A stretch of DNA of 64,000 bases. It comes from Escherichia coli. Its GTDB lineage: Bacteria; Pseudomonadota; Gammaproteobacteria; Enterobacterales; Enterobacteriaceae. The notes below the pieces were generated by a model, which ran no database searches, was not told where the DNA came from, and worked only from the letters and a program-made list of their open reading frames with translations. Where the stretch lies: NCBI RefSeq assembly GCF_001677475.2, contig NZ_CP015229.1. One strand, 5' to 3'. The position numbers and the translations under genes are program-made. Below are positions 4,088 through 33,631 of the stretch, one piece after another. Position 1 is the first letter of the stretch; every line of letters starts with the position of its first letter.

Positions 4088-4120
4088 AAAAAAAGGCCCC
4101 TGTTGAATGGGCAGGGGCCT
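4088..4120 (-). terminator. Rho-independent terminator downstream of cutC
   Basis: GC-rich hairpin AGGCCCCTG...CAGGGGCCT followed by a T-run on the minus strand. Confidence 0.5.
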
Positions 4121-4166
4121 GGTACGAGCAAGCATCATATTGGGCGACATGATGCAACGGTAAAAA

Positions 4167-4922
<756 letters not shown>

Positions 4923-9965: not shown

Positions 9966-11106
9966 GGGTCGGTTTCTCGTTAATAAAATCCAGGGCTTCC
10001 GGCACCGGAAGATGAGTAGGTTGTACAGGGCGCTGTCCACCAGCCAGACGCCAGCGTTTCAGTTGCCAGACCCAGGCCAGCACTTCCGCCACTGCGGCGT
10101 ACAGTTGACCCGGGATTTGTTGACCGATCTCCGCATGTCGATACAGCGCTCGCGCCAGCGGCGGCGCTTCAAGCGTCGGGACGTTATTTTCAGCGCCAAT
10201 TTCACGAATGCGCAGCGCGACCAGCCCTGCACCTTTAGCGACCACTTTCGGTGCGCTCATTTTGTTTTCGTCATACTGCAACGCTACCGAATAGTGGGTC
10301 GGGTTATTGACAATGACATCCGCTTTCGGCACATCGGCCATCATCCGACGCCGTGCAGCAGCTCGCTGCATCTGACGGATCCGTCCTTTAACATGGGGGT
10401 CGCCTTCGCTTTGTTTGAACTCATCACGAATATCCTGCCGCGACATTCGCAGCTTTTTCAGGTGGCTGAAGATTTGGAAAAAGACGTCAAATCCCACCAT
10501 TGGAATGACACCAAGCACCACCAGCAGTGCGCATAGCCCTACCAAATCCATCGCATTACCCATGGCGGTAATCGGAGACTCGGCCATTAAGCGCATCATC
10601 TGCGGCCAGTGATGCCAGAGAAAAAACCCCGTCACGCTGCCAACCAGGATGGTTTTCAAAATTGCTTTAAGTAACTCCGCGCCAGTCTGTGCCGAGAACA
10701 TCCGTTTAATGCCCGGTAGCGGGTTGAGTTTGGAAAACTTCGGCTGCAAGGATTTGCCGCTAAATACCAGCCCTCCCAGCATGACCGGAGAAATGAGCGC
10801 CACCAGCACCACGCCGCTAATCAGCGGCAGCAGCGCCAGCATGGCTTCTCTGATCAGCAGAATAATTTGCCCGAGGATCAGATTCGGGTCATTGATAATA
10901 CTGTGATCAAAATGCAGCCCAGCGGAGAGCATGCCCGACAATCGACGGGCCAGCGACACACCGCCAAACCAGATAACACTAACGCCTACCAGCAAAATCA
11001 GCAGTGAAGTCAGTTCACGGGAACGCGGGATTTGCCCCTCTTCCCGCGCTTTTTCTAGTCGGTGAGGTGTGGGGGCTTCTGTTTTGTCGTCGCTCTCGTC
11101 AGACAC
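9958..11106 (-). CDS. flhB: Flagellar export apparatus protein FlhB
   Basis: 382-aa ORF with NPTH autocleavage motif; 8-nt overlap with flhA. Confidence 0.95.
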   Translation of the reverse strand: MSDESDDKTEAPTPHRLEKAREEGQIPRSRELTSLLILLVGVSVIWFGGVSLARRLSGMLSAGLHFDHSIINDPNLILGQIILLIREAMLALLPLISGVVLVALISPVMLGGLVFSGKSLQPKFSKLNPLPGIKRMFSAQTGAELLKAILKTILVGSVTGFFLWHHWPQMMRLMAESPITAMGNAMDLVGLCALLVVLGVIPMVGFDVFFQIFSHLKKLRMSRQDIRDEFKQSEGDPHVKGRIRQMQRAAARRRMMADVPKADVIVNNPTHYSVALQYDENKMSAPKVVAKGAGLVALRIREIGAENNVPTLEAPPLARALYRHAEIGQQIPGQLYAAVAEVLAWVWQLKRWRLAGGQRPVQPTHLPVPEALDFINEKPTHE

Positions 11107-11236
11107 GTCGCCAATCCTGGAAAGAGTATTAAGCGTAAATGATGCCAGATCGCAAAGCGTTCAATGGTTTGAGTAAGGGGCAAAACAGGCGGGATTTAGG
11201 GCTTTTGCTGCCACACATCAAGCATAGTGTGCGTTT

Positions 11237-11266
11237 GTCGGATGCGGCGTCATCGCGTTATCCGAC
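11237..11266. repeat. REP-like palindrome in the cheZ-flhB intergenic region
   Basis: GTCGGATGCGGCG...CGTTATCCGAC inverted repeat. Confidence 0.4.
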
Positions 11267-11307
11267 CGCCTGATATGACGTAGTCACGCCACATCAGGCA
11301 ATACAAA

Positions 11308-11952
11308 TCAAAATCCAAGACTATCCAACAAATCGTCCACCTGATCCTGACTGGCTACCACACCGGCTTTGCTGGTATCGACCTGAGGTCCATTAAGCAA
11401 ACTCTGGTTTTCACGCTTTGGACGCGACTCCTGTTCCGGGATGTTTTCCAACAGCACCATCAGCAACTGGCGTTCGATCTCCTGAATGACATCCATCATC
11501 CGCTTAATGACCTGTCCGGTGAGATCCTGAAAATCCTGCGCCATCATGATTTCCAGCAGTTGCGCGTTAGTAAAGCTGGTATGCGCGGGGACATCTGCCA
11601 GAAATTGCCGCGTATCTGTTACCAGTTCACGGGCGTCGGCAAGGTCAATCGGATCGGCAAACCAGTCATCCCAACGTTGGGTTAACGCTTTTGCTGATTT
11701 CTCCATTTGATCCTGATGCGGTTGTGACGCCTCAACACTGTTCAGCGCCCGCTCCGCAGCCTGGGCGGTCATCTGCACAACATAGTACAAACGATCGCGC
11801 GCATCGGGGATGGCTTCCGCCGCTTCGGCAATGGCCTGATCCAGCCCCAGTTCCCGCAAACTGTCGCGCAGCATACGCGTCAGGCTGCCGATGCGCGCAA
11901 TGATATCGCCAGCTGAATACTCGTCAGCAGGTTTGATTGATGGTTGCATCAT
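11308..11952 (-). CDS. cheZ: CheY-phosphate phosphatase CheZ
   Basis: 224-aa ORF; start set at [10 protein letters not shown] (214 aa). Confidence 0.93.
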
Positions 11953-17637: not shown

Positions 17638-17664
17638 TTATCGGCAAGGAGGGGGGAAACTTTA
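17638..17664 (-). promoter_or_regulatory. Sigma-28 (FliA) promoter of the tar-tap-cheRBYZ operon
   Basis: Minus-strand TAAAGTTT-N11-GCCGATAA, perfect match to the sigma-28 consensus, about 30 nt upstream of the tar start. Confidence 0.8.
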
Positions 17665-17694
17665 TTGCAGATGCCACCTACCGCTAAATTGAAA

Positions 17695-17722
17695 TAAAAA
17701 ACCCGATGCGCAGATCATCGGG
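17695..17722 (-). terminator. Rho-independent terminator after cheW (end of motAB-cheAW operon)
   Basis: CCCGATG...CATCGGG hairpin followed by a U-run on the minus strand. Confidence 0.6.
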
Positions 17723-17750
17723 TTCATTTCAATTGAGGAAATCAGGAGAA

Positions 17751-21170: not shown

Positions 21171-22054
21171 GCTTCCTCGGTTGTCGTCTGTTGTTGCGGA
21201 TTTTTCACCGCACGCACATGCTCTTCCAGTTCAATAAACGATGGACGTTCGCTGGAATAGAGCGTTTTGCGACCAAACTCAACGGCGATAGGCGGTGCGT
21301 AACCGTTCAGATTAGAAAGCAGTGTGACTTTGACGCATTGCATCATTTTGCTGGTTTCGGCGCTTTTCTGACGTAAAACACTCGCTAATGGGGAAATAAA
21401 TCCGTAAGCCAATAAAATACCGAGGAAAGTCCCCACCATCGCATGTGCGATAAGCGCCCCCAGCTCGGCGGCAGGACGATCGGCTGAACCTAACGCGTGA
21501 ACGACCCCCATCACAGCCGCGACAATACCAAACGCCGGAAGTGAGTCCCCGACCAGCGCCAGACTGTTCGCCGGGACTTCTGCCTCGCTTTCGTGCGTCT
21601 CAATCTCTTCATCCATCAGGGCTTCGATTTCGAAGGTGTTCATGTGACCGCTGATAATCAGGCGCAGATAATCGACGATAAAATCAAGCATGACGCTATC
21701 CGCGAGGATGCGTGGGTAGCTGGCGAAGATCTCGCTCTCACGGGGATTTTCAATATCACGTTCCAGCGAAAACATCCCCATCTGCCGCGATTTCGCCATC
21801 AACCGATAAAGCAGAGCCAGCAGATCCATATACATTGCTTTGGTGTATTTGGAGCGACGAAACAGCAACGGCAGCGCCTTCAGCGTGCCTTTAATCGCTT
21901 TGCCATTATTGCCGACGATAAACGACCCAATCCCTGCACCGGCAATAATCACCAGTTCAGCGGGTTGATAGAGTGCTCCAAGGCTTCCACCGGTCATCAA
22001 ATAACCGCCGAAAACTGTACCGAGAACAACCAGGTAACCTAATAAGATAAGCAC
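21167..22054 (-). CDS. motA: Flagellar motor stator protein MotA
   Basis: 295-aa ORF, 4-nt overlap with motB. Confidence 0.95.
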
Positions 22055-22122
22055 GACATCATCCTTCCACTGTTGACCATGACAGGATGTTCAGTCGTCA
22101 GGCGTTAACGCGCGATTGGGGC

Positions 22123-22154
22123 AAAAAAAAGCAGCGGTACGTCGTTACCGCTGC
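22123..22154 (-). terminator. Rho-independent terminator after flhC
   Basis: GCAGCGGTA...TACCGCTGC hairpin followed by a run of 8 U on the minus strand. Confidence 0.6.
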
Positions 22155-22180
22155 TGGAATGTTGCGCCACACCGTATCAG

Positions 22181-22759
22181 TTAAACAGCCTGTACTCTCT
22201 GTTCATCCAGCAGTTGTGGGATAATATCGGCACGATTCTGGGAAAGTTTACGTCTTTTTACTGCCCGGGATGGCGGTTGACATAAGCTGCAGGCAAAGCT
22301 GCCAACAGGCTGGTGAGCGTGGGTAATAAAATTGCCGCCGCAGCAGTTGCAGCTGGAAAGTTGCAGTAATCCACTTTCAACAAACCGCACCAATGTCCAG
22401 GCACGGGTTAATGCCAGCAGCGGTCCTTCTTTTGCTTGCGGGCACTGTTCAAGGTATAAACGGTAAGCTTTGATCACCGCATCGACGCCATTACACAAAC
22501 CGGTTTTCAGTAAAAACTGCCATGCATTACAGAACATCGAAGCATGAACATTTTGTTCCCAGGTCATAAACCAGTCGGTTGAGAATGGCAGCATGCCTTT
22601 CGGCGGTGGGCTTCCGCGCAGTTCTTTATAAAGTTTTATCAGGCGTCCGCGACTTAACTGTGTTTCGCTTTCCAACATCTGCAAACGAGCGCCCAGGGTG
22701 ATCAATTCCATTGCCAGCTGAATATCCCGCGCTTCCTGAACAATGCTTTTTTCACTCAT
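22181..22759 (-). CDS. flhC: Flagellar master regulator subunit FlhC
   Basis: 192-aa ORF with Cys-cluster zinc site. Confidence 0.96.
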
Positions 22760-22761
22760 GA

Positions 22762-23121
22762 TCAGGCCCTTTTCTTGCGCAGCGCTTCTTCAGGCTGATT
22801 AACATCATTCAGCAAGCGTGTTGAGAGCATGATGCCGGTATGAATTTGCTGGAGATCGTCAACGCGGGAATCTTGCGTCAACTGAGTAATCGTCTGGTGG
22901 CTGTCAAAACGGAAGTGACAAACCAGTTGATTGGTTTCTGCCAGCTTAACCATTTGCGGAAGAGTCAGTGCCGCTAACGTTGTCGCCATTTCTTCATTTA
23001 TGCCGAGACGAAACATTGCGGACGCTTTGTCCTGAACAATCAGACGCTGTGCAAGTAGTAAATATGACAAGTTGATGTCATAAATGTGTTTCAGCAACTC
23101 GGAGGTATGCATTATTCCCAC
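22762..23121 (-). CDS. flhD: Flagellar master regulator subunit FlhD
   Basis: 119-aa ORF; an alternative start at [12 protein letters not shown] would give 116 aa. Confidence 0.93.
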
Positions 23122-23892
23122 CCAGAATAACCAACTTTATTTTTATGCGGTCTCACCGCACCCCGTGATGTCGCCGGGAAGCCCCGGTAAAAAATAATTA
23201 GCATTAGAATAGTTGCGATAAGCTGCAATAGGCAGAGCCCCTTTTTGGGATTTAATAAGTCCTTACAAATAGAAGGGGTTCTTTACACTTATCTAAGATT
23301 TTTCCTAAATCGACGCAACTTTACTCGTCACTACACGCACATACAACGGAGGGGGGCTGCGATTTTCAATAATGTGTGATGCAGATCACACAAAACGCTC
23401 AATTACTTAACATAAATGTATAAGTCATACTTTTGTTTTGGGTGTATTTCAATCTGTTAAAAAGTTTTTCGCGACGCTAGCAAGCAAAAATGAAACAGGA
23501 ATAATCGAAATGGGATGTTGCGCACAGTTAAAATAACTCACCGTAAATAATCATCTGCTATAAATAATTGCTTTAATGCAATACCAGATAAGCTATTTTT
23601 AAACAGACACTTACCGCACAACAAACTAATTAAATACAAAGAAAGGCAACAATCAACTTAATGTTAATAAAATGTTTTACATATATTAACCACTTGTTTA
23701 ATATGGAGAATCAGTACATTATTTTCTTATAATTACAGTTGAAATCATATGATCACCGAGAGTGATTGATTAATTGTATTTACTAATAATCAGACTAATA
23801 TTTACCTGTTTGACTGAGTTGGGATTGCGTCGATTCTCCATTAGGAGTAAAGCTTTAATGTCACCTGAAGTTCACAGAATAAGGAACAGGTT

Positions 23893-24321
23893 ATGAGCTA
23901 TAGCAATATTCTTGTCGCTGTTGCGGTTACACCGGAAAGTCAGCAACTGCTGGCAAAAGCAGTATCTATCGCCAGGCCAGTAAAGGGACACATCAGTTTA
24001 ATTACTCTCGCTTCCGACCCGGAAATGTACAATCAATTAGCTGCGCCGATGCTTGAAGATTTACGCAGCGTGATGCAGGAAGAAACGCAAAGCTTTCTTG
24101 ATAAGTTAATTCAGGATGCGGGGTATCCCGTTGACAAGACGTTTATTGCCTACGGTGAGTTAAGCGAACATATTCTGGAAGTTTGTCGCAAATATCATTT
24201 CGATTTGGTGATTTGCGGTAATCACAATCACAGTTTCTTTTCGCGAGCATCCTGCTCGGCGAAAAGAGTGATTGCCTCTAGTGAGGTCGATGTGCTGTTA
24301 GTTCCACTTACGGGAGATTAA
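23893..24321 (+). CDS. uspC: Universal stress protein C
   Basis: 142-aa ORF, product recognised from translation. Confidence 0.9.
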   Translation: MSYSNILVAVAVTPESQQLLAKAVSIARPVKGHISLITLASDPEMYNQLAAPMLEDLRSVMQEETQSFLDKLIQDAGYPVDKTFIAYGELSEHILEVCRKYHFDLVICGNHNHSFFSRASCSAKRVIASSEVDVLLVPLTGD

Positions 24322-24327
24322 CCGCTC

Positions 24328-27680
<3,353 letters not shown>

Positions 27681-33391: not shown

Positions 33392-33631
33392 TCAGTGACG
33401 GCAAATCTTACTCTGATCGGTCGAAAAACCTTCTTCCGAAGGTATAAATTTGCCTTTTGCTGCCAGAAACGCTACCAGCTCTCCCGCTGTCATCCCTTCT
33501 GCCGAGCAGGTGTGAAAACGTGCCTGTTCACCAAAACGCGCTTTAATCGCAGCTTCCAGACTGGCATGCGTATATTGCTCACCTGATTCAATCATCATAT
33601 TTAACACTTCATGACCGTGAATAGAGTCCAT
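33392..33631 (-). CDS. yecH: Uncharacterised protein YecH
   Basis: 79-aa ORF at the syntenic position. Confidence 0.85.
   Translation of the reverse strand: MDSIHGHEVLNMMIESGEQYTHASLEAAIKARFGEQARFHTCSAEGMTAGELVAFLAAKGKFIPSEEGFSTDQSKICRH

Follow-up and report, generated by a model that had tools for sequence, protein, structure and literature searches.

The flhDC promoter is activated by CRP (PMC5425062, PMC5493358), and H-NS, QseB and MatA are also listed among the positive regulators of flhDC (PMC5425062). The negative regulators LrhA, OmpR, RcsAB, Fur, IHF and YjjQ bind the AT-rich region (PMC5425062, PMC5493358). It has been reported that insertion of an IS upstream of flhD raises motility of K-12 (PMC11237407, PMC5493358, PMC8652233, PMC11836070), and that transcription of flhDC and of the whole flagellar regulon is higher in K-12 carrying such an insertion (PMC11237407, PMC8652233). 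IS-activated flhDC has reported costs to acid survival and stress resistance (PMC11237407, PMC8652233). In a Keio strain, IS5 lies 516 bp upstream of the start codon, and the IS1H of MG1655 was also used to turn the non-motile strain NCM3722 motile (PMC11836070). Motility is poor in IS-free K-12 strains, BW25113 being an example, and it varies among natural isolates (PMC5493358, PMC11836070). In K-12 stocks, cells that carry the IS coexist with cells that lack it, and re-streaking can yield IS-free clones (PMC11237407). A preliminary description of the DNA analysed here had stated that IS1 or IS5 upstream of flhD raises motility in K-12. This agrees with the literature cited above and with the RefSeq annotation of IS1H in MG1655 and of IS5 in W3110.

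Here we describe the flhDC upstream region in a stretch of 64,000 nucleotides (hereafter the window), which is a segment of the Escherichia coli chromosome. The interval between flhD and uspC is almost certainly the ordinary uninterrupted wild-type flhDC-uspC region of the E. coli chromosome. An IS-free flhDC upstream region is already known biology and is not a discovery; the finding serves as a useful annotation sanity check, has little wider importance and opens no new question.

Layout of the flhD-uspC locus

The gene order on one side of the interval is torYZ, cutC (with MicL), argS, flhEAB, cheZYBR, tap, tar, cheWA, motBA and flhCD. Past the interval, uspC is followed by otsAB, araHGF, tRNA genes for Leu, Cys and Gly, uvrCY, sdiA, fliAZY, fliC, fliDST and amyA. 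The ORF list and the annotations of homologous loci show that motBA-flhCD is divergent from uspC-otsAB, and flhD and uspC are thus found back to back. The three genes next to the interval were assigned by the ORF list, homologous-locus annotation, protein comparison and coordinate mapping. flhC is located at 22181-22759 on the minus strand and encodes 192 aa, with two substitutions relative to K-12 FlhC (E110K and P176R). flhD is located at 22762-23112 on the minus strand and encodes 116 aa from an ATG at 23112, and its product is identical to K-12 FlhD. uspC is located at 23893-24321 on the plus strand and encodes 142 aa, with three substitutions relative to K-12 UspC (H62Q, H99R and H101Y).

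The same 116-aa FlhD, starting from the ATG, is annotated by RefSeq in MG1655 (NP_416406.4), strain 746 and ST2747. Because RefSeq FlhD starts at the ATG at 23112, the true interval is 23113-23892, 780 bp. The preliminary description had named the flanking genes, flhD and uspC, correctly. Its boundary at 23122, giving 771 bp, was taken from a GTG at 23121 that opens a 119-aa ORF, and is 9 bp off. The entire interval is single-copy and IS-free and has a GC content of 34.9%. That it is AT-rich, as had been proposed, is borne out by the composition: GC is 34.8-34.9% for the interval versus 49.9% for the whole window, and is lowest, at 25-30%, in 23500-23800. The distal AT-rich upstream DNA (23419-23892, GC 25-38%) is common to the divergent flhD and uspC promoters, as judged from composition and the literature (PMC11237407, PMC5493358).

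Small RNAs were found at their expected places, namely MicL inside cutC (356 bits) and C0465 between tar and cheW (97 bits). A segment homologous to MotR at the 3' end of flhC has one difference from K-12 in 95 nt. The positions given for small RNAs in the window are 4088-4395, 17654-17731 and 22123-22217, the last being the MotR homologue. An Rfam search of 22000-24400 at E<=1 gave no match.

Insertion sequences and the prevalence of the uninterrupted interval

The preliminary description had proposed that the interval has neither a transposase ORF nor IS termini. No transposase-like ORF was found in the interval. Its ORFs reach at most 44 aa, and the seven of at least 30 aa gave no match to a Pfam family above threshold. 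The IS1 terminal inverted repeat is absent from the entire window with up to 3 mismatches allowed. The sole site in the window similar to the IS5 inverted repeat is a 3-mismatch match at 33542, which is at chance level, and no such site is present in the interval. Among 5426 complete E. coli genomes, the interval behaves as single-copy DNA in 5421: the median is one place per genome, no genome has more than two, and only two of the places are plasmid-borne. Being single-copy, the interval cannot contain mobile repeated DNA. It also aligns to strain 746 without gaps. ORF, Pfam, inverted-repeat, copy-number and alignment evidence thus all uphold the proposal. IS terminal repeats in the interval were named beforehand as the observation that would speak against it; those of IS1 and IS5 were looked for and none was found.

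The inverted repeats in and around the interval raise the question of a decayed IS remnant, a solo terminal repeat or a MITE that carries no ORF. These repeats are up to 22 nt long and 71-100% complementary. Among the weak pairs are one of 22 nt with 77% complementarity (23239-23260 with 23625-23646) and a perfect one of 11 nt (23308-23318 with 23825-23835). They are, however, chance-sized and ordinary for AT-rich DNA, and none is an IS1 or IS5 inverted repeat. The perfect pair depends on A at 23833, a base that is private to the window among nine genomes compared and was found in none of the others; this repeat is probably due to chance. Together with the single-copy status of the interval in the genomes that have it, and its gapless collinearity with thousands of genomes, this makes a remnant exceedingly improbable.

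The two insertion points known from K-12 adjoin in window coordinates. The IS5 target TTAA, where W3110-type K-12 strains carry IS5, is at 23407-23410, and the IS1H target CATAAATG, where MG1655 carries IS1H, is at 23411-23418. IS positions were taken from RefSeq annotation and the cited papers. Because TTAA and CATAAATG each occur once there, both are clean empty sites. None of the features of the IS-activated alleles, which have IS1, IS5, IS3, IS30 or another IS upstream of flhD (transposase ORF, terminal repeats, target duplication, a size of at least ~1.5 kb, multi-copy DNA) is seen for this region of the window. Conversely, all tested sequence-level features of a wild-type IS-free flhDC region were found, namely divergent flanks, full-length collinearity and promoter landmarks.

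How common the uninterrupted state is was examined in a sample of 5426 complete E. coli genomes. A 771-bp query was covered to at least 80% by one place in 5271 of them. This query is blind to IS1, as the search joins pieces up to 885 bp apart; 400-bp probes and junction probes were therefore used in its place. Three overlapping 400-bp probes were used with a join distance of 700 bp, and an MG1655 derivative with IS1, strain 2F_0, was split correctly as a control. The probes were uninterrupted in 96.7-99.0% of genomes: 5372 of 5426 for 23040-23439, 5246 of 5426 for the central probe 23280-23679, and 5371 of 5426 for 23520-23919. The central probe failed in 180 genomes, and by count about 112 of these match the two K-12 laboratory alleles. 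The MG1655-type IS1 junction was found in 55 genomes; those listed are K-12/MG1655-type, most of them documented laboratory strains. The W3110-type IS5 junction was found in 57 genomes, and all among the matches listed are K-12 laboratory derivatives. Overall, ~97% of genomes are uninterrupted, ~2% have the K-12 laboratory IS junctions and ~1% have other interruptions. An IS at the flhD-uspC interval is therefore a rare state and mostly a laboratory one, and these population counts put the K-12 IS alleles in perspective. Because ~97% of genomes look alike, an uninterrupted interval is expected and carries almost no information. The finding is an absence, to which "more than chance" is inapplicable, and ~97% is the relevant base rate.

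The other ~1% of interrupted genomes includes natural isolates outside K-12 in which different events have occurred. The human isolate Z1323HEC0422 has ISEc20 (IS110 family) between flhD and uspC, and strain CX05 has IS30 in the flhD-uspC interval. In the human faecal isolate 2017.17.01CC, IS1 abuts a deletion of flhE through flhD.

An empty site could also be secondary, if precise excision had removed an ancestral IS or if recombination had put an IS-free allele in its place. IS-free clones can indeed be recovered from K-12 stocks in which IS-bearing and IS-free cells are mixed (PMC11237407), and a 640-bp segment (23040-23679) is 100% identical to ST2747 while its flanks differ by ~1.6%, as would be consistent with a recombination patch. 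There is, however, no footprint, and each target sequence is present once. The mosaic polymorphism extends across the whole window, beyond the interval, and the IS-free state is the overwhelming norm, so that IS-free ancestry is more parsimonious. We regard a secondary loss as very unlikely.

It can also be asked whether the assembly reports an IS-free path although all or part of the population carries an IS. Cultures of K-12 are documented to be heterogeneous for IS at this locus (PMC11237407), and at least one IS3-family element is indeed present elsewhere in the window, at 57033-58261. However, the window forms one contiguous sequence that stays collinear with other genomes for more than 40 kb, and the known hot spots show no trace of a join in the sequence. 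An artefact of this kind thus has very little probability. In principle, one assembled sequence is compatible with IS-bearing subpopulations such as those known from K-12 stocks. The preferred reading remains that the assembled, uninterrupted interval is the genuine wild-type region, and no part of the sequence speaks against it.

The window strain is not IS-free overall. The IS3-family element has 38-nt imperfect inverted repeats, orfA at 57920-58204 and orfB at 57051-57863, and is part of a ~5.3-kb islet between a yedN-like LRR gene (55513-56631) and fliE. The islet spans 56818-62219 and has at its ends 141-nt direct repeats (56818-56958 and 62079-62219) that share 79% identity and match perfectly over a core of 19 nt. 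The islet also has an intact tyrosine integrase (60932-62233), a second SRAP/yedK-like ORF, which is truncated (58428-59018), and an ORF of 272 aa that weakly matches HEPN (59015-59833). Window positions 52000-64000 are not covered to 80% or more by any complete E. coli genome.

Over 24 kb (12000-36000), the best identity among the 5426 complete E. coli genomes is 98.6%, and mismatches are evenly distributed at ~1.5%. Exact-protein matches showed that OtsA and FliC of the window are widespread protein alleles. Among 163 variable sites in 4.2 kb, the window has 9 private ones, similar to the other genomes compared. An artificially altered sequence was considered and rejected, as the private sites number only 9 of 163, a count like that of the other genomes. 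From its sequence, the lineage looks like an ordinary under-sampled mosaic E. coli rather than a divergent species.

Promoter and leader landmarks and the control expected for flhDC

Promoter landmarks were placed in the window by coordinate mapping from MG1655. The flhD transcription start site of K-12 (TSS; 1978395), taken from K-12 annotation and the literature, maps to 23311. By the mapped TSS and alignment, the flhD 5' leader is located at 23113-23311 on the minus strand and has 199 nt, versus 198 nt in K-12. Its first 41 nt are the same as in K-12, and the final 117 nt before the ATG have one difference from K-12, at 23152. A region homologous to the antisense RNA AsflhD (b4839), an ncRNA of NC_000913.3, is located at 23091-23311 on the plus strand, with 8 differences in 220 nt. 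The hexamer TAAAGT, read directly from the sequence at 23318-23323 on the minus strand, lies at -12 to -7 from the mapped TSS, and this position suggests that it may be the -10 element. K-12 and most strains have TACAGT instead. The C-to-A change at the third position of the hexamer (23321) is common to the window, 746 and ST2747. A CRP-site core, TGTGA-N6-TCACA, is located at 23375-23390, as seen in the sequence, the alignment and the variant table, and is centred at -71.5 relative to the mapped TSS. In one half-site K-12 stands apart with TCACG; T at 23375, which gives the consensus TCACA, is present in the window and in eight of nine comparison genomes.

A scan for consensus promoters and terminators missed the flhD promoter and found sites no more often than in shuffled sequence. 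The promoter assignment therefore rests on K-12 homology. At the level of sequence, the K-12 landmarks (TSS region, CRP site at -71.5 and leader) are conserved, and the motifs presumably function as they do in K-12. The preliminary description had proposed that the strain has the native regulatory architecture for the operon. Collinearity with ~97% of the 5426 genomes, together with the conservation of the landmarks in sequence, speaks for this proposal.

The leader differences cluster at 23231-23279, about +33 to +81. The window, 746, ST2747 and L011 have the haplotype GAACCCCUU...AAGGGGCUC, and K-12 and others have GACCCAUUU...AAGGUGGUUC, the second of two main E. coli haplotypes. The changes lie on opposite strands of a predicted stem around an AAGGA motif and look compensatory in this model. 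The z-scores obtained on folding the leader's 5' part were not significant.

From these features, the following picture of flhDC control can be proposed. The interval would contain the class-I flagellar promoter, and the 199-nt leader would be a target of post-transcriptional control. As a wild-type region of this class, it would be active and regulated by CRP, H-NS, LrhA, OmpR, RcsAB, CsrA and small RNAs. The mapped promoter region is contiguous with ~480 bp of AT-rich upstream DNA, which in K-12 binds repressors and nucleoid proteins. In K-12 laboratory lineages, IS1, IS5 and other IS insert ~100-520 bp upstream, as counted from the promoter or from the start codon; they relieve the repression, and the cells become hypermotile. 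With no IS, remnant or target-site duplication in the window and with the upstream DNA contiguous with the promoter, the operon would be expected to be under full native control. Expression of flhDC in the window strain would accordingly be at a "native" level. Here, "native" refers to architecture only and makes no prediction of the motility level of the strain. The strain keeps the hot spot where an IS could insert under selection for motility.

Comparison with described flhDC alleles

The IS-bearing alleles of K-12 differ from the window by their insertions. The MG1655 allele (NC_000913.3) has a 768-bp IS1H and an 8-bp duplication of CATAAATG, which are its sole length difference from the window; its flanks and target site are the same as in the window. 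The W3110 allele (NC_007779.1) has a 1195-bp IS5 and a duplicated TTAA, neither of which is present in the window, and again its flanking sequence is the same. The preliminary description had suggested alignment to MG1655 and to an IS-free reference as a check; these alignments showed that IS1H is absent from the window and that strain 746 is collinear with it. It should not be taken for granted that results from IS-activated K-12 strains, such as MG1655 or W3110, hold quantitatively for the window strain.

Like the window, the BW25113-type allele of K-12 is IS-free, and the two are collinear. They have in common FlhD, the TSS region and two leader segments, namely the first 41 nt and the RBS-proximal part. 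The K-12 allele is 96.2% identical to the window, with ~30 positions differing. It has TCACG for TCACA, TACAGT for TAAAGT, a 198-nt leader and the other haplotype at 23231-23279. As the window allele differs at the -10 region, the CRP half-site and the leader, its expression may differ quantitatively from that of IS-free K-12. It could further be supposed that the window haplotype, with its consensus CRP half-sites, the -10 C-to-A change and the 23231-23279 leader variant, sets a basal flhDC expression unlike that of IS-free K-12, but we regard this as rather doubtful. If it were true, natural cis-regulatory alleles, not IS insertions, would tune the investment in motility among wild E. coli.

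The closest relatives of the window allele are IS-free natural isolates. An allele at least 99% identical to that of the window is present in about 300 of the 5426 complete genomes. The probe 23520-23919 has no 100% match among complete genomes, the best being 99.5%, and an exact 80-mer with the two rare SNPs has no match among GTDB species representatives. ST2747, with the identical flhD promoter allele, has flhB truncated or frameshifted, cheY frameshifted and no cheZ; the window has intact ORFs (11028-11926). Relative to the natural isolates ST2747 and 746, the window has two substitutions upstream of uspC, A at 23778 and the A at 23833 that creates the 11-nt inverted repeat. ST2747 (CP007393) is IS-free and 100% identical to the window over 23040-23679, and strain 746 (CP023353) is 99.6% identical over the whole 771 bp. 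In both natural isolates, the gene order, the interval length and the allele of the IS-free region are as in the window.
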